From positions 8,742,001-8,806,000 of the forward strand of contig NC_090404.1 in NCBI RefSeq assembly GCF_036365525.1: a DNA stretch of 64,000 nt, written 5' to 3'. Numbering within the stretch: the stretch's first letter is position 1; every line of letters starts with the position of its first letter. The stretch is from Heterodontus francisci. Taxonomy: Eukaryota. The position numbers and the translations under genes were made by a program. Shown here one piece after another: positions 1,050 to 61,224 of the stretch. The notes under the pieces are model-generated. The model did not search any database. It worked only from the letters and a program-made list of their open reading frames with translations, and was not told the DNA's origin.

Positions 1050-1720
1050 TCAATGTTTGTAAATCCTCCCTTCTGGTACCCGATAAAATGCGTTTATAAG
1101 TCATCACTGCAAGTACAGGACAGAAATCCAGGACAATTCTAGTTTCAATGAAATATTTTTTCCTCTCTTGTTCCCCCAAAGCTGTAAATCCCTGTCCCAC
1201 ACACTCTCCCTCCTCTTTGTGCTGAAATCCAAACCCATCGCACCATCTCTTTCCTCCACTGCCAGTTTTCTCCCTCCCTCTACTCTGACTGGGTTCAGTT
1301 CTCCAGCCCCTGTGTTGCAGAGTCAGAATCAAATGAATGAGTCAATGATTTTCTCTCCTGGTCACTGGGACCCTGAAGCCCCGCCTACTCTCTGTGTCAT
1401 CACAAGGATAGCCACGCCTGCGCAATGCCCGCCGCTCAGCCAAGATGGCGGCCGTTGACCTGGCCCTTTACCCGGGAAAAAGCCCCGGAGCTGCAAACGC
1501 GGAACCTGGAGGTTCTTATTCGGGGCTTGCTGCCTACACAAGGTATTTCGGAAGTCTCCCCACCCACCCACCGGCTCCATGCATCCCCTCCAACTCAGTC
1601 TGTCCGACTCTCACCTGCTGCAAAAGCGTCTCCAGCACTCGCAGAGCTCAGATCAAAATGACACTGCGCATGCCCCAGATACAGTCCAGCCCCCCCCCCC
1701 CCCGCGCCTGCGCACTGGAC
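1050..1720 (-). promoter_or_regulatory. Orphan ZNF upstream module (acceptor remnant plus YY1/NRF1/GC-box segment); coding exon missing
   Basis: Homologous to 14520-14995, 60870-61225 and 10200-10470; CAAGATGGCGGC 1441-1452, TGCGCATGC 1665-1673. Confidence 0.7.
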
Positions 1721-14519: not shown

Positions 14520-14995
14520 ATTTACCCCGGATTCCTGGCGAGGCAGAATGTGGTCCATCGATGGCTGCAGGAGCTGTGTTCACAGGGAGGGTGGGCGGGG
14601 AGGCTTCAGAAACACTGGTGTAGGCCACAATCCCCAAATAAAAACCTCCAGGTCCCACGTTTGCAGCTTTTTCCGGCAACAGGCCCAGGATAATGGCCGC
14701 CATCTTGGTTGAGCGGGGAGCAGAGCGCATGCGCGGCCATTTTGGTGATGACGCACAGCGTGGGCGGGGCTTCAGGGTCCCAGTGACCCGGTGTGAAAAT
14801 CATTGACTCATTGATTTGGTTCTCACTCTGCACACGGGCTGGAGAACTGAACCCAGACAGAGTAGAGGGAGGGAGAAAACTGGCAGTGGAGGAAAGAAAT
14901 GGTGCAGATGGTGTGATGGGTTTGGATTTCAGCACAGGGAGGAGGGAGAGTGTGTGTGTCAGGGATTTACAGCTTTGGGGGAACATGAGAGAAAA
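14520..14995 (+). promoter_or_regulatory. ZNF upstream module with stacked YY1, NRF1, YY1, CRE, GC-box and AP-1 motifs
   Basis: GCCGCCATCTTG 14696-14707, GCGCATGCGC 14725-14734, GGCCATTTTG 14735-14744, TGACGCA 14749-14755, GGGCGGGGC 14762-14770, TGACTCA 14804-14810. Confidence 0.7.
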
Positions 14996-15960: not shown

Positions 15961-16049
15961 GGAATTAGAAAGAGAGGATTTACAGATGGGAAACTCAAAC
16001 TAAATATCACACTCGAGCTCTGACCTAGCCACTGGATTCTACACTATAC

Positions 16050-19000
16050 AGAAGCAGTGGGAGAGGAGTGGAGATTTAAAAAGCACGGCCAAAAGGTTCA
16101 GAAGCCGGAGGGAAGCAGCGGGAGAGGAGCAGAGGTTCAGAGGGAAGGAGTGGGAGAGAAGCGGAGGTTCAGAGGGAAGCAGAGGTTCGGAGGGAACCAG
16201 CGGGAGAGGAGCAGAGGTTCAGAGGGAAGCAGTGGGAGAGGAGCGGAGGTTCGGAGGGAAGCTGTGGGAGAGGAGCGGAGGAGCAGAGGTTCGGAGGGAA
16301 GCTGTGGGAGAGGAACGGAGGAGCAGAGGTTCAGAGGGAAGCAGCGGGAGAGGAGCAGTGGATTGGAGGGAAGCAATGGGAGAAGGGCGGAGGTTCAGAG
16401 GGAAGCAGCAGGAGAGGAGTGGAGGCTCAGAGGCCGGAGGGAAGCAACGGGAGAGGAGCGGGGGTTCGGAGGGAAGCTGTGGGAGAAGAGCGGAGGTTCG
16501 GAGGGAAGCTGTGGGAGACGAGCGGAGGTTCGGAGGGAAGCAGTGGGAGAGGAGTGGAGGTTCGGAGGGAAGCAGTGGGAGAGGAGCGGCGGTTCGGAGG
16601 GAAGGAGTGGGAGAGGAGCAGAGCTTCAGAGGGAAGCAGAGGTTCGGAGGGAAGCAGTGGGAGAGGAGCAGAGGTTCGGAGGGAAGCAGCGGGAGAGGAG
16701 CGAAGGTTCGGAGGGAAGGAGTGGGAGAGAAGCGGAGGTTCAGAGGGAAGCAGAGGTTCGGAGGGAACCAGCGGGAGAGGAGCAGAGGTTCAGAGGGAAG
16801 CAGCGGGAGAGGAGCGAAGGTTCGGAGGGAAGGAGTGGGAGAGAAGCGGAGGTTCAGAGGGAAGCAGAGGTTCGGAGGGAACCAGCGGGAGAGGAGCAGA
16901 GGTTCAGAGGGAAGCAGTGGGAGAGGAGCGGAGGTTCGGAGGGAAGCTGTGGGAGAGGAGCGGAGGAGCAGAGGTTCGGAGGGAAGCTGTGGGAGAGGAA
17001 CGGAGGAGCAGAGGTTCAGAGGGAAGCAGCGGGAGAGGAGCAGTGGATTGGAGGGAAGCAATGGGAGAAGGGCGGAGGTTCAGAGGGAAGCAGCAGGAGA
17101 GGGGCGGAGGTTCAGAGGGAAGCAGCAGGAGAGGAGTGGAGGCTCAGAGGCCGGAGGGAAGCAACGGGAGAGGAGCGGAGGTTCGGAGGGAAGCTGTGGG
17201 AGAAGAGCGGAGGTTCGGAGGGAAGCTGTGGGAGAAGAGCGGAGGTTCGGAGGGAAGCTGTGGGAGACGAGCGGAGGTTCGGAGGGAAGCAGTGGGAGAG
17301 GAGCGGAGGTTCGGAGGGAAGCAGTGGGAGAGGAGCGGAGGTTCGGAGGGAAGCTGTGCGAGAGGAGCGGAGGAGCAGAAGTTCAGAGGGAAGCAGCGGG
17401 AGAGGAGCGGAGGTTCGGAGGGAAGCTGTGCGAGAGGAGCGGAGGAGCAGAGGTTCAGAGGGAAGCAGCGGGAGAGGAGCAGTGGATTGGAGGGAAGCAA
17501 CGGGAGAAGGGCGGAGGTTCAGAGGGAAGCAGCAGGAGAGGAGCGGAGGCTCAGCGGCCGGAGGGAAGCAACGGGAGAGGAGCGGAGGTTCGGAGGGAAG
17601 CTGTGGGAGAAGAGCGGAGGTTCGGAGGGAAGCTGTGGGAGACAAGCGGAGGTTCGGAGGGAAGCAGTGGGAGAGGAGCGGAGGGAAGGAGTGGGAGAGG
17701 AGCAGAGGTTCAGAGGGAAGCTGTGGGAGAAGAGCGGAGGTTCGGAGGGAAGCAGTGGGAGAGGAGCGGCGGTTCGGAGGGAAGCAGCGGGAAAGGAGAG
17801 GAGGTTTGGAGTGAAGCAGCGGGAGAGGAGCGGAGGTTCGGAGGGAAGCAGTGGGAGAGGAGCGGAGGGAAGCAGTGGGAGAGGAGCGGAGGTTCGGAGG
17901 GAAGCAGCGGGAAAGGAGAGGAGGTTCGGAGAGAAGCAGCGGGAGAGGTGCGGAGGTTCGGAGGGAAGCAGCGAGAGAGGAGAGGAGGTTCGGAGAGAAG
18001 AAGCGGGAGAGGAGCGGAGGTTCGGAGGGAAGCTGTGGGAGAAGAGCGGAGGTTCGGAGGGAAGCTGTGGGAGAAGAGCGGAGGTTCGGAGGGAAGCTGT
18101 GGGAGACAAGCGGAGGTTCGGAGGGAAGCAGTGGGAGAGGAGCGGAGGGAAGGAGTGGGAGAGGTTCAGAGGGAAGCTGTGGGAGACGAGCGGCGGTTCA
18201 GAGGGAAGCAGTGGGAGAGGAGCGGCGGTTCGGAGGGAAGCAGCGGGAAAGGAGAGGAGGTTTGGAGTGAAGCAGCGGGAGAGGAGCGGAGGTTCGGAGG
18301 GAAGCAGTGGGAGAGGAGCGGAGGGAAGCAGTGGGAGAGGAGCGGAGGTTCGGAGGGAAGCAGCGGGAAAGGAGAGGAGGTTCGGAGAGAAGCAGCGGGA
18401 GAGGTGCGGAGGTTCGGAGGGAAGCAGCGAGAGAGGAGAGGAGGTTCGGAGAGAAGAAGCGGGAGAGGAGCGGAGGTTCGGAGGGAAGCAGCGGGAGAGG
18501 AGAGGAGGTTCGGAGAGAAGCAGCGGGAGAGGAGTGGAGGTTCGGAGGGAAGCAGTGGGAGAGGAGCGGAGGTTCAGAGGGAAGCTGTGGGAGAAGAGCG
18601 GAGGTTCGGAGGGAAGCAGTGGGAGAGGAGAGGAGGTTCGGAGAGAAGCAGCGGGAGAGGAGCGGAGTTTCGGAGGGAAGCAGTGGGACAGGAGCGGCGG
18701 TTCGGAGGGAAGCAGTGGGAGAGGAGCGGAGGTTCGGAGGGAAGCAGTGGGAGAGGAGAGGAGAGAAGCAGCGGGACAGGAGCGGAGTTTCGGAGGGAAG
18801 CAGTGGGAGAGGAGCGGAGGTTCGGAGGGAAGCAGTGGGAGAGGAGAGGAGTTTCGGAGGGAAGCAGTGGGAGAGGAGCGGAGGTTCGGAGGGAAGCAGT
18901 GGGAGAGGAGAGGAGTTTCGGAGGGAAGCAGTGGGAGAGGAGAGGAGTTTCGGAGGGAAGCAGTGGGAGAGGAGCGGAGGTTCGGAGGGAAGCAGTGGGA

Positions 19001-19785
19001 GAGGAGAGGAGTTTCGGAGGGAAGCAGTGGGAGAGGAGCGGAGGTTCGGAGGGAAGCAGTGGAAGAGGAGCAGAGGTTCGGAGGGAAGCAGTGGGAGAGG
19101 AGTGGAGGGAAGGAGTGGGAGAGGAGCGAAGGTTCAGAGGGAAGCTGTGGGAGAAGAGCGGAGGTTCGGAGGGAAGCTGTGGGAGACGAGCGGAGGTTCG
19201 GAGGGAAGCTGTGGGAGACGAGCGGAGGTTCGGAGGGAAGCTGTGGGAGACGAGCAGAGGTTCGGAGGGAAGCAGTGGGAGAGGAGCGGAGTTTCAGAGG
19301 GAAGCTGTGGGAGAGGAGCAGAGGTTTGGAGGGAAGCAGTGAGAGAGGAGCGGAGGTTCGGAGGGAAGCAGTGGGAGAGGAGCGGAGGTTCGGAGGGAAG
19401 CAGTGGGAGAGGTTCGGAGGGAAGCAGCGGGAGAGGAGCTGAGGTTCGGAGGGAAGCTGTGGGAGAGGAGCGGAGGTTCGGAGGGAAGCTGTGGGAGAGG
19501 AGCGGAGGTTCGGAGGGAAGCTGTGGGAGAGGAGCAGAGGTTCGGAGGGAAGCTGTGGGAGAGGAGCGGAGGTTCGGAGGGAAGCTGTGGGAGAGGAGCG
19601 GAGGTTCGGAGGGAAGCTGTGGGAGAGAAGCAGAGGTTCGGAGGGAAGCTGTGGGAGAGGAGCGGAAGTTCGGAGGGAAGCTGTGGGAGAGGAGCGGAGG
19701 TTTGGAGGGAAGCTGTGGGAGAGGAGCGGAGGTTCGGAGGGAAGCAGTGAGAGAGGAGCAGAGGTTCGGAGGGAAGCTGTGGGGA
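16050..19785 (+). repeat. G/A-rich minisatellite, 32-bp unit GGGAGAGGAGCGGAGGTTCGGAGGGAAGC(A/T)GT with higher-order blocks
   Basis: Direct tandem repetition over ~3.7 kb; produces long spurious ORFs in all three + frames. Confidence 0.97.
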
Positions 19786-20599: not shown

Positions 20600-21028
20600 G
20601 CTGGACCAATTCTATTTAGGCATTTTTCTTTAGTAAAGGGAAGACTTGGAGGTGATCTGATCGAGGTCTTTAAAATTATCAATGGGTTGAACGTGGAGAG
20701 AATGTTTCCACTTGTGGGAGAATCCAAACTTAGGGGCAATAAATACAAGACAGTTCGTTGTAAATCCAGAGGAGAGATTTCTTTACTCAGAGAGTGGGTA
20801 GAATGTGGAACTCGATACCACAGGAAATGTTTGAGGTAAATGGCGTAGATGCTTTCAAAAGGAAACTAGACAAGTCCATGAGAGCAAAGGCAACAAAAAG
20901 ATCTGCTGAAAGGCTGAGATGAGGTAGACAGAATGGGAGGAGATTCATGAGCGATATAAACACCAGCACAGACTAGTTGGGCTGAATGGCCTGTTTGTGT
21001 ATTGTATATTTTAAGTAATCCTATGTAA
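20600..21028 (+). mobile_element. CR1 3' fragment directly upstream of the ZNF acceptor (shared with 52445-52890)
   Basis: GDLIEVFKIINGL, VERMFPLVGESK, CR1 tail. Confidence 0.85.
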
Positions 21029-21041
21029 TCTTCCGTTATAG

Positions 21042-21391
21042 GGTATTAGAAGGGGAGGATTTGCAGATGGGAAGCTCAAACCAAACATCACATCAAGATC
21101 TGGCAGTCACTCAATTCATCAGGACCAAAATATCATCGGCTTTTGAATGTGGAAGGAGAAATGTTTGTCTTTTCTGTCTCTGGGAGAAGATTTCAAACAT
21201 CAGTGTGACTGGAAAAGCACAGACACACACACCCGAGTGAGAGTGTACTGAATGTGGAAAGAACTTTCACCAGTTACACAGCCTGAAAAACATCGCAACA
21301 TTCACAGTGGAGAGATACTGTAGACACGTCTCGGTGTGGACGAGGCTTTAACTGATCATCCAACCTGGAAAGACACAAGGACACTCGTACC
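21042..21391 (+). other. 5' leader built from three degenerate zinc fingers; uORF 21161-21208
   Basis: Acceptor AG 21040-21041; ATG-FVFSVSGRRFQTSV-TGA; in-frame TGA 21353-21355. Confidence 0.75.
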
Positions 21392-22570
21392 ATGGCAAAA
21401 TCATGGAAGTGTGGGGACTGTGGGAAAGGATTCAGTTACCCGTCTGAGCTGGAAATTCATTGGCGCAGTCACACTGGGGAGAGGCCGTTTACCTGCTCTG
21501 TGTGTGGAAAGGGATTCACTCAGTCATCCGGTCTCTATGCACACCAGCGAGTTCATACTGGAGAGAGGCCGTTCATCTGCCTTGAATGTGGGAAGGAATT
21601 TAATGTTTTATCAACCCTCCAGCAACACAAGCGGGTTCACTCTGCTAAGAGACCGTTCAAATGTTCTGACTGTGAGAAGAGCTTTAAAAGCACAAAGGAT
21701 CTACTGGCACACCAACGCACTCACACTGGGGAGAGGCCGTTTATCTGCTCTGTGTGCGGGAAGGGATTCACACAGTCATCCCACCTCCTGAGACATCAAC
21801 TAGTTCACTCTGATAACAGACCTTTTCAATGTTCTAACTGTGGGAATAGCTTTAAAAGTAAAATTGATTTACTGAACCATCAACGCACTCACACTGGGGA
21901 GAGGCCGTTCACCTGCTGTGTGTGTGGGAAGGGATTCACTCAGTCATCCACCCTCTATACACACCGGCGAGTTCATACTGGAGAGAGGCCATTCACCTGT
22001 CTTGAATGTGGGAAGGGATTTACTGTTTTATCAAACCTCCGGACACACCAGCGACTTCACTCTGATAAGAGACCATTTATCTGTTCTGACTGTGGGAAGA
22101 GCTTTAAAAGCACAAAGAATTTACTGAACCACCAACGTACTCACACTGGGGAGAGACCGTTCACTTGCTCTGTTTGTGGAATGGGATTCACTCAGTCATC
22201 CCACCTCACTGAACATCAACTTGTTCACACTGATGAGAGACCTTTAAAATGTTACGACTGTGAAAAGAGATTTAAACACAAAAACGATCTGATAAAACAC
22301 CAACGTACTCACACTGGGGAGAGACCCTTCACCTGCTCTGTCTGTGGAAAGGGATTCAATCAGTCATCCCACCTCACTGAACACCAACTTGTTCACACTG
22401 ATAAGAGACCTTTTAAATGTTTCAGCTGTGAGAAAAGTTTTAAAAGTAAAAGGAATCTGCTGACACACCAGCAGGTTCACACCAGGGAGAGGTCGTTCAC
22501 CTGCTGTGCATGTGGGAAGGGATTCACTCAGTCATCGAACCTGCTGAGACACCAGCAAGTTCACAAGTGA
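21392..22570 (+). CDS. C2H2 zinc-finger protein, 14 tandem fingers, no effector domain
   Basis: 392 aa = 14 x 28; all C/H ligands intact; TGERPF and SDKRPF linkers; ACCATGG Kozak context. Confidence 0.92.
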   Translation: MAKSWKCGDCGKGFSYPSELEIHWRSHTGERPFTCSVCGKGFTQSSGLYAHQRVHTGERPFICLECGKEFNVLSTLQQHKRVHSAKRPFKCSDCEKSFKSTKDLLAHQRTHTGERPFICSVCGKGFTQSSHLLRHQLVHSDNRPFQCSNCGNSFKSKIDLLNHQRTHTGERPFTCCVCGKGFTQSSTLYTHRRVHTGERPFTCLECGKGFTVLSNLRTHQRLHSDKRPFICSDCGKSFKSTKNLLNHQRTHTGERPFTCSVCGMGFTQSSHLTEHQLVHTDERPLKCYDCEKRFKHKNDLIKHQRTHTGERPFTCSVCGKGFNQSSHLTEHQLVHTDKRPFKCFSCEKSFKSKRNLLTHQQVHTRERSFTCCACGKGFTQSSNLLRHQQVHK

Positions 22571-22779
22571 CTGCAGGGATTGGATTCTGATGTTGCTGCT
22601 GTTAATCACATCCTGAACTGAGTCTTGACTGAAAGCTTTTTTCCAGTTGGGTTTCCAAAGGGCTCAGCACTAGGCCGCTTTCTTTTTGTGGTTACATATC
22701 AATTATTTAGACTTCAATGTAGGGGGCATGATTAAGAAGTTTGCAGATGATACAAAAACTTGGTCATGGGGTTGATAAT

Positions 22780-29299: not shown

Positions 29300-30287
29300 G
29301 TCACTTGTGAACTCGCTGGTGTTTTGTCAGGTGGGATGAATCCCTTCCCACACACAGAGCAGGTGAATGGCCTCTCCGCAGTGTGAACTCACTGGTGCCT
29401 CAGTAGGTGAGATGACCGAGTGAACCTCTTCTCACACACTGTACAAATAAACGACCTCTCCCCATTGTGAGTGTGCTGGTGTGTCAGCAGACCATTACTG
29501 CTTTTAAAGTTCTTCCCACAGTCAGAACATTTAAATGGTCTCTGATCAGTCTGAACTTGTTGGTGCTGCTGCAGATTGAATGACCGAGTGAATCCTTTCT
29601 CACACACTAAGAAAGTGAATGGCCTCTCCCCAGTGTAACTTCGTCGACGAGTTTCCAGCTGGGATGCAGAACTGAATCCCTTCCCACAGTCCCCACATTT
29701 CCATAGTTTCTCCGTGCTGCAGGTGTCTCTGTGCTTCCCCAGTTGGATGATCAGTTGATTCCTCGTCCACACACAACACATGTACGGTTTCTCCCCATTG
29801 TGAATGGTGCAATGTTTTTTCAGGCTGTGTAACTGGTTAAAGCTCTTTTCACAGTCACCACACAGGAACAGTCGAACCCGGGTGTGTGCGTCTCGGTGCT
29901 TTTCCTATCACACTGATGTTTGAAATCATTTCCTACAGAGAGAACAGACAAACAAAGAACAAAGAAAATTACAGCACAGGAACAGGCCCTTCGGCCCTCC
30001 AAGCCTGCGCTGATCCAGATCCTCTATCTAAACCTGTCACCTATTTTCTAAGGGTCTGTATCTCTTTGCTTCCTGCCCATTCATGTATCTGTTTAGATAC
30101 ATCTTAAAAGACGCTATCGTGCCTGCGTCTACCACCTCCGCTGGCAACGCGTTCCAGGCACCCACCTTCACCTTCCACATTCAAAGGCCGATGATATTCA
30201 GGTCCTGAAGAATTGAGTGACTGTTAGATATTGACATGGTTTGGGGGGGGGGGGGGGGGGGTTTCCCATCTGCAAATCCTCCCTTTC
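29300..30287 (-). pseudogene. C2H2 ZNF pseudogene (~5 fingers) with leader
   Basis: ACG in place of the start ATG; ORF 29389-29781 ends in a premature stop; CR1 tail inserted at 29955-30166. Confidence 0.85.
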
Positions 30288-41439: not shown

Positions 41440-43400
41440 GGAGAATCTGGAGAGGAGAAAAGAATTAGTAGGAGAAAGGGCTCTGAATCTGGAACAATGA
41501 TCAGAGAGAGGAAGGAGTGTGTGGGACAGGGATTTATAGATTTGGGAGAATGAAAGGAGAAAGAATGTTCTCTAGAAACTAGAGTTGTCTGTTCTGAATT
41601 TCTATCCTGTACTGACAGTGATGACATTTGTAAACTCCTTTTACAGGGTATCAGTAGTATTATGAGAGGATTTGCAGGCAGGAATGTCAAACCAGAGATC
41701 TTGGTGAGATCTTACAGAATCACTTAATTCATGTATGATCGGCCTCTGATTCTGGAAATGGAAATATCTGTTCTATCTGTGGCAAAAGATTTCAAACATC
41801 AGTGTCACTGGAAAAGCACCGAGACACACAGACCCGAGTGAGAGTGTTCCAGTGCACTGACTGTGGAAAGAACTTTAACCAGTTAACCTGAAAAAAAACT
41901 CCACGCATAGAAACATAGAAAATAGGAGGAGTAGGCCATTCGGCCCTTCGAGCCTGCTCCGCCATTCATTATGATCATGGTTGATCATCCAACTCAGTGA
42001 CCTGTTCCCGTTTTCCCCCCATATCCTTTGATCCCTTTCACCTCAAGAGCTATATCTAACTCCTTCTTGAAAACATACAATGTTTTGGCCTCAACTGCTT
42101 TCTGTGGTAGCGAATTCCACAGGCTCACCACTCTCTGGGTGAAGAAATTTCTCCTCATCTCAGTCCTGAAAGGTTTACCCCGTATCCTTAGATTATGACC
42201 CCTGGTTCTGGACTCTCCCACCATCGGGAACATCCTTCCTGCATCTACCCTGTCAAGTCCTGTTAGAATTTTACAGGTTTCTATGAGATTCCCCCCCTCA
42301 CTCTTCTGAACTGCAGCAAATATAATCCTAACCGACTCAATCTCTCCTCATACGTCAGTCCCGCCATCCTAGGAATCAGTCTGGTAAACCTTCACTGCAC
42401 TCCCTCTTGAGCAAGAACATCCTTCCTCAGATAAGGAGACCAAAACTGCACACAATATTCTAGGTATGGCCTCTCCAAGGCCCTGTATAATTGCAGCAAG
42501 ACATCCCTGCTCCTGTACTCGAATCCTCTCGCTATGAAGGCCAACATATCATTTGCCCTTTTTACCGCCTGTTGCACCTGCATGCTTACCTTCAGCAACT
42601 AGTGTACGAGAACAGCCAGGTCTCGTTGCAAATTCCCCTCTCTCAGTTTATAGCCATTCAGATGATAATCTGCCTTCCTGTTTTTGCTACTAAAGTGGAT
42701 ACCCTCATATTTATCCACATTATACTGCATCTGCCATGCATTTGCCCACTCACTCTACTTGTCCAAATCACCCTGAAGCCTCTCTGCATCCTCCTCACAA
42801 TTCAACCACCCACCCAGTTTTGTGTCATCTGCAAAGTTGGAGATATTACATTTAGTTCCCTCATCTAAATCATTAATATATATTGTAAATAGCTGGGGTC
42901 CTAGCACCGATCCCTGCGGTACCCCACTAGTCACTGCCTGCCATTCACAGCGGGGAGAAACCGTACACGTGTTGTGTGTGAGGATGAGTATTCAAGTGAT
43001 CGTCCAACCTGGAGAGACACAAGACAGCGCGTAGAAACTGGAAATGTGGGAACTGTGGGAAGGAACTACCCACCCCAGCTGAAAACTCATCGACACAGTC
43101 ACACTGGGGGGGGAGAGACCATTCACCTTCTCAGTGTGGTGCAAGGGATTCATGACCTCAGTCAGTCTCCAGAAACATCAGTCAATTCACACTGGAGAGG
43201 CTGTTCACCTGCTCCATATTTTGGAAGGAATTTACTCTATCAAACTTCTGACATCAGTGAGTTCACAAGTGACTGCTGGGGTTGGATTCTGCTGTTATTG
43301 CTGCTGTTAATCACATCCAATACTGACAGTTGGGGTTTATTTCTGCTGATGTTAGTAACTCCTATAACTGGGCTGGAGTTTAATATTCTGATATCCGTCA
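41440..43400 (+). pseudogene. C2H2 ZNF pseudogene (module, leader, decayed fingers, trailer) split by CR1
   Basis: Acceptor ttttacag ~41647; leader fingers; HSGEKPY at ~42945; many frameshifts; cacaagtga trailer ~43265. Confidence 0.8.
41907..42941 (-). mobile_element. CR1 RT-3' fragment
   Basis: LEYCVQFWSPYLRKD, TRGHNLRI, CR1 tail. Confidence 0.9.
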
Positions 43401-51497: not shown

Positions 51498-52088
51498 TCA
51501 CTGGTGAACTCGCTGGTGCCTCAGCAGGTTGTTTGAAACAGAAAATCTCTTCCCACACATAGAACAGCTGAACGGCCTCTCACCAGTGTGAACTCGCTGG
51601 TGTCTCAGCAGACTGCTTTTAATTTTAAATCTCTTCTCACAGTCAGAACATTTAAAAGGTCTTTGATCAGTGTGAACAAGTTGGTGTTCAGTGAGGTGGG
51701 ACAATCGAGTAAATTCCTTCCCACACTCAGTGCAAGTGAACGGCCTCTCCCCAGTGTGAAGCTGCCGGTGTCTCAGTAGGTGGTATGACCTAGTGAAACC
51801 CTTCCCACACTCGGAGCAGGTGAATGGCCTCTCTCCAGTGTGAGTACCTTGGTGTAGCAGTAGCTCGTTTTTACTTGTAAATCTGTTCTCACATTCAGAA
51901 CATTTAAAGGGTCTCTTATCAGTGTGAATAAGTTGGTGCATCAGGAGGTTGGATGACCGAGTGAATCCCTTTCCACACACAGAGCAGGTGAATGGTCTCT
52001 CCCCAGTGTGTACGTGTCGATGAGTTTCCAGCTCACATGGGTAATTGAATCCCTTCCCACATTCCTCACATTTCCACGGTTTCTCCAT
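51498..52088 (-). CDS. C2H2 zinc-finger protein, 7 tandem fingers, no effector domain
   Basis: From ATG 52086-52088 (ACCATGG): MEKPWKCEECGKGF..., 196 aa = 7 x 28, all ligands intact; the track's TTG start at 52124 is not preferred. Confidence 0.9.
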   Translation of the reverse strand: MEKPWKCEECGKGFNYPCELETHRHVHTGERPFTCSVCGKGFTRSSNLLMHQLIHTDKRPFKCSECENRFTSKNELLLHQGTHTGERPFTCSECGKGFTRSYHLLRHRQLHTGERPFTCTECGKEFTRLSHLTEHQLVHTDQRPFKCSDCEKRFKIKSSLLRHQRVHTGERPFSCSMCGKRFSVSNNLLRHQRVHQ

Positions 52089-52430
52089 GGTGTGAGTGTC
52101 CTTGTGTCTCTCCAGGTTGGACAATCAGTGGAAGGCTTGACCACACAGAGAACACGAATATGGTTTCTCTCCGCTGTGAAAATGGTTAAAGCTCTTTCCA
52201 CAGTCAGTTCACTGGAACACTCTCACTCGGGTGTGTGTATCTCGGTGCTTTTCCAGTCACACTGATGTTTGAAATATTTTCCCACAGACAGAACAGACAA
52301 ACATTTCTCCTTCCACATTCAAAGGCCGATGATGATATTCAAGTCCTGATGAATCGAGTGATTTTGTCAGAACATAATTTGGATGTTCGATTTGAGTTTC
52401 TCATCTGCAAATCGTCCCTTTCTAATCCCT
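52089..52430 (-). other. Dead-finger 5' leader; uORF 52257-52304
   Basis: MFVCSVCGKIFQTSV-TGA; in-frame TGA 52125-52127; acceptor ttttacag ~52430. Confidence 0.75.
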
Positions 52431-52444
52431 GTAAAAGATTACAT

Positions 52445-52890
52445 GGAATGACATAGAATACACAGTACACAAACAGGCCATTCAGTCCCACTAGTCTGTC
52501 CAGGTACTTATACACCTCATTTGCCTGCTCCCATTCCATCTACCTCATTTCAGCCGACCTTTTTATTTCCTTTTCTCTCATATTTTCATCCAGTTTCCTT
52601 TTGAAAGCATCTCAACTTACTTGCCTCAACCACTTCCACATTCTACCCACTCTGAGTAAAGAAATCTCTCCTTATTTCCCTATTGGATTTATCAGTAACT
52701 GTATTCATGGCCCCTGGATTTGGATTCACTCACAAGTGGAAACATTCTCTCCACATCTACTCTGTCCAACCCATTGATAATTTTAAAGAGCTCTATCATG
52801 TCACCGCTAACTCTTCTGTTTTCGGAATATAAAAGCTCCAGCCTGTTCAATCTTTCCCAATCGCTGTAATCTCTCAGTTTACTGAATCCA
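52445..52890 (-). mobile_element. CR1 3' fragment upstream of the ZNF acceptor
   Basis: GDMIELFKIINGLDRVDVERMFPLVSESKSRGH. Confidence 0.85.
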
Positions 52891-60274: not shown

Positions 60275-61224
60275 GTAGTCACTGTGAACTCGCTGGTGTC
60301 TCAGCAGATTGGATGACAAATTGAATCCCTTCCCACATATGGAGCAGGTGAACGGTCTCTCCCCGGTGTGAACACGCTGGTGTCTCACAAGGCCGGATGA
60401 TTTAGTGAACGCCTTCCCACACATGAAGCAGATGAATGGCCTCTCCCCAGTGTGACTGCGCCAATGAGTATCCAGCTGGGACGGGCAAGGGAATCGCTTC
60501 CCAATCTGCGCATTTTCACGGTTTCTCCGTGGTTCAGGTGTCCTCATGTCTTTCCAGGTTGGATGATCAGTTGAAGCTTCGTTCACACAGAGAACATGCA
60601 CAGGGATTCTTCCTGCTGCGACTGCTACAATGCTCTTTCAGGCTGGTTAAAGTTCATTCCACAGTCAGTGCACTGAACACTCTCACTCGGGTGTGTGTAT
60701 CTCGGTGCTTTTCCTGGCACACTGATGTTTGAAATCTGTTCCCATAAACAGAACAGACAAACATTTCTCCTTGAACATGCAAAGGCCTGATAAATTGAGT
60801 GACACACTCAGATCTTGATGAAAGGTTGGGTTTGAATTTCCCGTGTGCAAATCGTCCCCTTCTAATCCCCTGTAAAAGGAGTTTACAAAAGTCATCACTG
60901 TCAGCACAGGATAGAAATTCAGAAAAGACAATTCTAGTTTCTATGGAACATTTTTTCCTCTCTTGTTCCCCCAAAGCTGTAAATCCCCATCCCACACGTT
61001 CTCCCTCCTCCCTGCACTGAAATCCAAACCCATCTGCACCATTTCTTTCCTCCATCGCCAGTTTTCTCCCTCCCTCCACTCTGGCTGGGTTCAGTTCTCC
61101 AGCCCCTGTGTGCAGAGTGCAAATCAAATCAATGAGTAAATGATTTTCTCTCCGGCCCACTCTCTGTGTCGTCACCAAGATGGTCACGCATCTCTCTGTT
61201 CCCCGCTCAGCATGATGGCGGACG
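60275..61224 (-). pseudogene. C2H2 ZNF pseudogene (~3 fingers) with contiguous leader and upstream module
   Basis: ACG at the start position (60528-60530), TGA and frameshift in finger 1, acceptor 60870-60871, trailer 60160-60275. Confidence 0.85.

Follow-up and report, generated by a model that had tools for sequence, protein, structure and literature searches.

Clustered zinc-finger families and near-cognate start codons are each known separately. The KRAB-ZNF genes of tetrapods and the FiNZ-ZNF genes of cypriniform fish occur as hundreds of clustered paralogs that carry the finger array in a single last exon, with canonical linkers, a history of birth and death, and many pseudogenes (PMC10547256). 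The main text of this survey of metazoan zinc-finger ORFs does not name cartilaginous fish and does not contain the term 'start codon' (PMC10547256). Known vertebrate genes with a near-cognate main start number a few dozen, mostly single genes, and the clusters known among them hold three or four (PMC3105428). R3HCC1, UFSP1 and EIF4G2, which start only at CUG or another near-cognate codon, and the paralog clusters C1QL1-4 and YPEL share an upstream in-frame stop, a CUG in strong context, out-of-frame AUGs ahead of a variable first in-frame AUG, and an AUG in some homologs, and human CUG starts, e.g., those of R3HCC1 and UFSP1, were proposed by these same features (PMC3105428). Among near-cognate codons CUG is the most efficient, a purine at −3 and a G at +4 matter most, and a hairpin aids initiation at spacings of 14 and 18 nt, as with the AUU start of PTEN-beta and the downstream hairpin of Kozak, where the stem lies within 14–18 nt (PMC5666671). 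In zebrafish, ribosomes stall on tandem C2H2 fingers, which sets off Znf598-dependent decay, and the mRNAs concerned become more stable when initiation is blocked (PMC11620358). The literature that we searched, with most subscription papers outside it, gave no account of the shark family described here, of a dead-finger leader, of a non-AUG zinc-finger family or of a large CUG family, and described no effector-bearing shark counterpart of the KRAB-ZNFs.

We analysed a 64,000-nt stretch of the Heterodontus francisci genome (the window), which holds a tandem C2H2 (Kruppel-type) zinc-finger gene on its forward strand. The intact array of 14 fingers spans positions 21395–22570 (stop at 22568–22570), and the start of the 3′ untranslated region (22568–22610) is conserved among paralogs. 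By Pfam the 401-aa product has 14 zf-C2H2 stretches with canonical linkers in one frame, where at least five fingers in a single frame define the class. Neither this product nor one leader gave a KRAB, SCAN or BTB match in Pfam, and the gene does not appear to belong to the KRAB-, SCAN-, BTB- or FiNZ-ZNF groups, in which an N-terminal effector comes from an upstream coding exon. Among named proteins, those nearest to the start of the window array are from sharks. The gene belongs to a large family (type A), for which a first look at the 6.0-Gb genome gave 2072 candidates, with clusters located on contigs C34, C22, C32, C7, C9 and others; on C34, which holds the window, five leader matches were found in 20 evenly spaced 10-kb stretches. 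Unlike KRAB-ZNF and FiNZ-ZNF genes, type-A genes have no effector that we found, carry a leader of three dead fingers, and likely start at CUG. The peptide at the junction of leader and array is present in protein models of four other shark genera (Pristiophorus, Heptranchias, Scyliorhinus and Carcharodon), whose start site is occupied by Met, Thr or Val, and therefore the type-A design is, judging by these models, old in sharks.

Compact paralogs begin with a CpG-rich promoter, a first exon of ~60 nt, in which the donor is conserved but, in 20 matches, no ATG is, and an intron of ~0.7 kb, and end in a final exon made of the leader, the array and a conserved 3′ region. The window shows this 5′ layout for another copy on the reverse strand (1085–1737, running from the end of the promoter through a short exon 1 and its donor to a compact intron), and the upstream 5′ part of the copy at 21042 is found only as remnants (14584–14995). 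Exon 2 of that copy would follow an acceptor AG at 21040–21041 that is seen in paralogs, at an intron end that differs from the family's. There, as in three other places, a common repeat-like sequence has replaced the intron end and supplies the acceptor (window 20900–21041 and 52430–52600; loci L056 and L064). Promoter motifs in the paralogs resemble what we take to be NRF1 and ZNF143 sites, and a motif conserved in intron 1 (window 1443–1480 and 14700–14760) is presumably like that of YY1. The copies retain promoter and intron and cluster on few contigs, which fits gene duplication. Contigs from four runs of four studies, which we guess to be RNA, cover the leader and bridge it and the array, so that the refutation by leader-skipping transcripts is not borne out; no exon 1-exon 2 joint was among the joints listed for these contigs. 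Contig depth, which cannot rank gene parts, dropped 5- to 400-fold at the acceptor and went up again at exon 1 in two runs.

For quantitative comparisons 202 type-A copies were scored, comprising a discovery set of 122 (loci anchored either on the acceptor or on the first finger of the array, together with loci taken blind) and a replication set of 80 fetched later from genome-wide exact-match lists and stratified at the position of the window ATG (47 ACG/ACA and 33 ATG). These do not include 24 non-redundant best DNA matches, 30 copies of a sister subfamily (B), duplicates, and a window remnant at 43032. Copies counted as intact if six or more fingers made up 75% or more of the stop-free frame that follows the start site, and 112 of the 202 qualified. 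Because the replication set was stratified, start-codon proportions were taken only from the 84 copies that are unbiased at that codon.

The final exon opens with a non-coding segment shared with subfamily B (21042–21160, with upstream ATGs at 21067 and 21147), for which we obtained a pN/pS of 0.81 and 37 new stops. It is followed by what the original prediction described as three degenerate C2H2 fingers, and Pfam indeed matched zf-C2H2 to the leader when it was read with X at TGA. Dead finger 1 opens as a 15-codon upstream ORF (21161–21208) that ends at a first TGA (TGA1, 21206–21208); the rest of finger 1, finger 2 and the first half of finger 3 (21209–21352) are frameshifted in the window copy and neutral in the family; and a second TGA (TGA2, 21353–21355) lies 39 nt before, and in frame with, the ATG at 21392. 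The two stops fall at helix positions +3 and −1, as had been stated, and the TGAs named for other window copies, at 52125, 60567, 29751 and 42997, are all present. Three of these paralogs lie on the reverse strand: an intact one with seven fingers, CTG kept and ATG (51498–52429, TGA2 at 52125–52127), a broken one with CTG kept, ACG and stops nearby (60284–60869, TGA2 at 60567–60569), and a broken one with ACG in which the TGA is out of frame by one base (29383–29954, TGA at 29751–29753). In translations of the 29 best paralogs besides the window both stops were always found, once with TAA at the second site; TGA stood in 90 of the first 100 among 161 exact-pattern matches, the remaining 10 being one step away, and in the 202 pooled copies it was present at site 1 in 154 and at site 2 in 158, with TAA in its place in 10 and 6, respectively. 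Reading the commonest letter at each position gave a single frame that runs from the acceptor into the array and is interrupted by two stops and no others, and sawshark protein model P0001 terminates exactly at TGA1.

No special retention of the stops is apparent, as TGA retention (0.89, versus 0.82 for the median codon) ranks 11 and 13 among 68 non-CpG leader codons. In intact copies the leader fingers have a pN/pS of 0.79 (0.65–0.94) and 45 new stops, compared with a pN/pS of 0.75 in broken copies and of 0.48 in the first array finger of intact ones, and each 27-nt leader window is frameshifted in 10–53% of intact copies. These patterns support a single event in which the three fingers became non-coding, after which they evolved neutrally. 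The TGAs are founder stops carried along, neither readthrough sites nor demonstrably selected. Of the proposal that an ancestral gene turned its own fingers into a 5′ UTR and was then amplified, the once-only loss and the amplification are supported, and the ATG as the start of the family is not. The further suggestion that the stops serve to sever an upstream effector exon found no footing, as the short exon 1 has no conserved ATG and the 5′ segment is already non-coding in subfamily B (stop-free in just 6 of 30 copies). None of 275 proteins retrieved from 1.84 billion representatives had the three leader fingers open, in an output swamped by generic finger proteins that does not prove absence.

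The leader was also claimed for every copy that retains its 5′ part, which does not hold across the family. Subfamily B is interleaved in the same clusters and has the same acceptor, 5′ segment and first array finger, but it lacks fingers 1 and 2, its finger 3 is open, and it starts at an ordinary AUG ~100 nt past the acceptor, at a place that is GTG in type A (73 of 112 intact copies). Twenty-five of the 30 B copies, from many places on C34, C22, C32 and C7 (L095–L124), are intact, and relatives occur in other sharks (P0030, P0038 and P0081). CGA stands at the TGA2 site in 20 of the 30, in agreement with the remark that CGA is common at helix −1, and CpG decay as the origin of TGA2 is therefore supported and is probable for this second stop. 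The comparison suggests that the common ancestor of A and B may have started within the leader exon. One copy (L123) appears intermediate, with a B layout and an A-like helix.

The original prediction placed the start of the whole family at the ATG that replaces a glycine of the linker and reads T-M-E-K-P. This ATG is absent in 25 of 50 intact unbiased copies (18 ACG, 7 other) and in the window copies at 60567 and 29751 (both ACG and both broken), and the window gene itself reads M-A-K-S-W rather than M-E-K-P. Twelve nucleotides past TGA2 and 27 nt before the ATG/ACG site lies a CTG (21365–21367; with its context, 21362–21368). It is the leucine codon in the helix of dead finger 3 and is flanked by A at −3 and G at +4. 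We assign a probability of about 0.8 to the reading that this CUG is the ancestral start and that AUG was added later in many copies.

Every one of the 60 intact copies that lack the downstream ATG has an in-frame CTG (55) or ATG (5) at −27, the corresponding counts being 41 of 52 among broken non-ATG copies (p = 1e-4) and 44 of 52 among intact copies with the ATG (p = 0.002); with one copy per 90% cluster the count was 45 of 45. At 11 control CTGs of the same leaders, CTG or ATG was kept in 474 of 603 cases (79%, p = 2e-6), the best single control reaching 0.90 (p about 0.001). All five changes at the site were to ATG, versus 3 of 132 at the controls, and the five converted copies are only 77–84% alike mutually, so the conversions are independent. 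The context is also kept, with a purine at −3 in 60 of 60 and a G at +4, scored by fixed position, in 57 of 60. Between CTG and array no frameshift was found in the 60 copies, as opposed to 10–53% in the upstream windows, and no stop in 477 codons, as opposed to 76 in 3906 upstream (p = 9e-5). An in-frame Met is altogether absent from 14 of the 54 CTG frames, use of the first Met would cost at least one finger in 52 of 54, and the neutral survival of such arrays (median 280 codons) has a probability of 1e-4 or less; the non-ATG copies therefore need another start. TGA2 lies 12 nt upstream of the CTG in 95 of 112 intact copies, and an open in-frame upstream AUG was found in none of the 32 intact non-ATG copies scored. 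The replication set alone gave the same picture (23 of 23 intact non-ATG copies with CTG or ATG, versus 18 of 24 broken ones, p = 0.02). The upstream in-frame stop, the conserved codon in strong context, the AUG in homologs and the kept frame are the features by which near-cognate CUG genes have been proposed, and judged by them type A would be such a gene family. The start codon does derive from a finger, as had been predicted, but most likely as the CUG of a helix leucine.

Some of the data fit the CUG less closely. Intact ATG copies keep CTG or ATG at −27 in 16 of 16 cases of the replication set and in 28 of 36 of the discovery set, so that only the discovery set speaks for a relaxation of the site once AUG was gained. 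The nine added codons have a pN/pS of about 0.5 in broken non-ATG copies too, which counts against the CUG reading. In other species the support for CTG is a leucine in protein models, and no protein starting at a converted AUG was found among nine matches.

The site 27 nt downstream (21392–21394, ATG within ACCATGG in the window copy) is ACG in many paralogs, and its ATG likely derives from CpG deamination. ACG contains a CpG, the decay of which yields ATG or ACA. Twelve control CpGs decayed evenly (318 CG, 207 TG and 215 CA), and the start site of intact copies (28 ACG, 39 ATG and 4 ACA) shows an excess of TG over neutral decay (p = 0.004). On a FastTree tree built without CpG sites and without the start codon we counted 27 changes between ACG and ATG, versus 29 with shuffled labels, which is like control CpGs, and supported clades mix both codons; the tree is star-like and unrooted and gives no direction, and the direction from ACG to ATG is taken from the CpG mutation bias. 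By this evidence ATG appears to arise repeatedly by CpG decay of ACG, and copies with an ATG at the site, the window copy among them, very likely use it as their main start. Another ACG, at leader position −338, has decayed to ATG, giving an upstream start codon, in 21 of 66 intact copies and to ACA in 16; ATG is gained at least as often as ACA, and new upstream AUGs there are therefore not purged.

The ACG (ACC ACG G) might itself start translation in the non-ATG copies, with the CTG kept for some other reason, or might act as a second start beside CUG. ACG as the sole start was our earlier reading, and it gave way to CUG after the retention of CTG in non-ATG copies was seen. What still speaks for a role of the ACG is that the synonymous ACA is depleted in intact copies relative to the control CpGs (p = 0.001) and is not depleted in broken ones; in the pooled set 47 of 70 ACG copies and 7 of 25 ACA copies are intact (p = 0.001), and CUG alone does not explain this depletion. 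In the replication set alone, though, the depletion has p = 0.11, all ten intact copies in which the site is ACA, GCA, ACC or deleted keep CTG, and an ACG start leaves unexplained both the CTG to ATG conversions and the lack of stops and frameshifts upstream of ACG. ACA also breaks one pair of a predicted hairpin, a bulged stem of 12 bp that begins 16 nt after the CUG and spans the ACG/ATG site (21384–21415), and hairpin pairing could explain its depletion as well as ACG as a second start could. We consider an ACG start unlikely on balance. The hairpin has a mean of −14 kcal/mol and a z of about −2.5 in intact ACG and ATG copies, compared with −11 to −12 kcal/mol in broken ones, and is weak in the window ATG copy, which folds no better than shuffles (z −0.36). 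Positions +2 and +12 covary in intact copies, ACG going with CCG and ATG with CCA (22:10 versus 15:21, p = 0.03; absent in broken copies), which is weak evidence from a test in which many stem bases are fixed by the search-pattern anchors and one covarying pair stands against eight control CpGs. Compared with the hairpins of PTEN-beta and Kozak, the predicted spacing is alike, but the type-A stem is predicted only, is moderate in strength and contains a second start site.

Two further explanations seem to us very improbable. An upstream coding exon might be spliced into a cryptic acceptor past TGA2, which would make the CTG region a splice signal and internal coding sequence. The surroundings of TGA2 do fit the branch-point consensus and are followed by a short pyrimidine-rich stretch, and two public protein models (P0010 and P0028) splice in at such places. 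The models disagree on the place, however, and the contigs of the four runs pass from the leader into the array, with no landing there among the 15 joints listed from a set with 733 more; the available AG is preceded by G or A and not by a pyrimidine, a change from CTG to ATG would weaken the acceptor, and the exon 1 that is seen has no conserved ATG. Alternatively, the linker AUG would be the family start after all, with the TGA kept to sever an upstream effector exon and the non-AUG copies dying. ATG is the commonest codon at the site (299 exact matches genome-wide, versus 188 ACG/ACA) and exceeds neutral CpG decay, as noted above. Against this, intact genes are as frequent among ACG copies as among ATG copies (47 of 70 versus 52 of 90), ACG copies sit on long terminal branches, have a first-finger pN/pS of 0.40, and outnumber those with any other non-ATG codon, the retention of TGA is ordinary, and no effector exon was found. 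Readthrough of the TGAs, or their decoding as selenocysteine, which would fit two stops that are both TGA in a column-majority frame otherwise open from acceptor to array, has next to no probability, as coding selection across the TGAs is not apparent (leader pN/pS about 0.8, with 45 new stops), TAA replaces TGA at both sites, and the frameshifts of the leader largely refute it.

Under the CUG reading, ribosomes would leak past, or re-initiate after, two to four upstream AUGs, reach the CUG in its strong context, pause at the predicted hairpin and start there with Met, so that a zinc-finger protein without an effector, with M-E-R-H-K-D-T as its first residues, would be made in small amounts. 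Upstream AUGs were present in all 85 copies scored (mean 2.8–3.9), and the CUG of 10 in 32 intact copies lacking the ATG is overlapped by an out-of-frame upstream ORF, so low output is expected from the CUG. A gain of AUG, whether at the former ACG or at the CUG, would raise the amount of protein copy by copy; in copies with AUG most of the protein would be nine residues shorter, and the window gene would be an AUG copy that still keeps its CUG. Low output may even be the point, given the dosage of the protein and the stalling of ribosomes on finger arrays. The dosage of DNA-binding proteins is often kept low. If so, a weak start would limit both dosage and ribosome collisions, and how stringently start codons are selected would tune the whole family together. 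To the full picture, a pan-shark family of at least 100 effector-less genes per genome with a hairpin-helped CUG start and CpG decay as a one-way switch to AUG, we give about even odds.

Type A would differ from the known near-cognate genes in its number, on the order of a hundred putative CUG paralogs in one genome (188 exact ACG/ACA matches, about half of them intact), in that its codon comes from a dead domain, and in the repeated gain of AUG at two sites. If the CUG reading is true, this would be an unusually large gene set whose start codon is non-standard, about half of the sampled intact copies being CUG-only, and a natural experiment with many independent replicates of CUG to AUG and ACG to AUG changes in one fixed context. 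It would also outline a route for the birth of a start codon, in which a dead coding domain provides codon, context and hairpin and methyl-CpG decay provides the AUG. The expression of type-A genes may bear on how sharks control transposons. Gene finders that require an AUG would mis-model such genes, and this agrees with public models whose N-termini are invented or partial and whose joins are chimeric (P0001, P0005, P0010, P0123 and P0182). Two of them, the sawshark models P0001 and P0005, fuse histone H2A sequence to the leader exon, which suggests either histone genes beside the clusters or chimeric annotation.

Several minor observations concern amplification around these genes. On C34, at ~28–45 Mb (L002–L030), type-A pseudogenes have expanded recently, and 14 of the 24 non-redundant best matches there have a common stop 22 codons into the array; amplification in that region therefore needs no coding capacity. 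A tandem array on the same contig (L190, G000:C34:7700373-7743937) holds at least 17 units of ~2.75 kb that are 98–99% alike, each with acceptor, leader and a three-finger frame and with no match to promoter or exon 1. In the window, a purine-rich 32-nt satellite of ~112 copies (16106–19783), with long open frames on both strands, begins just past a truncated leader copy at 15961–16039.
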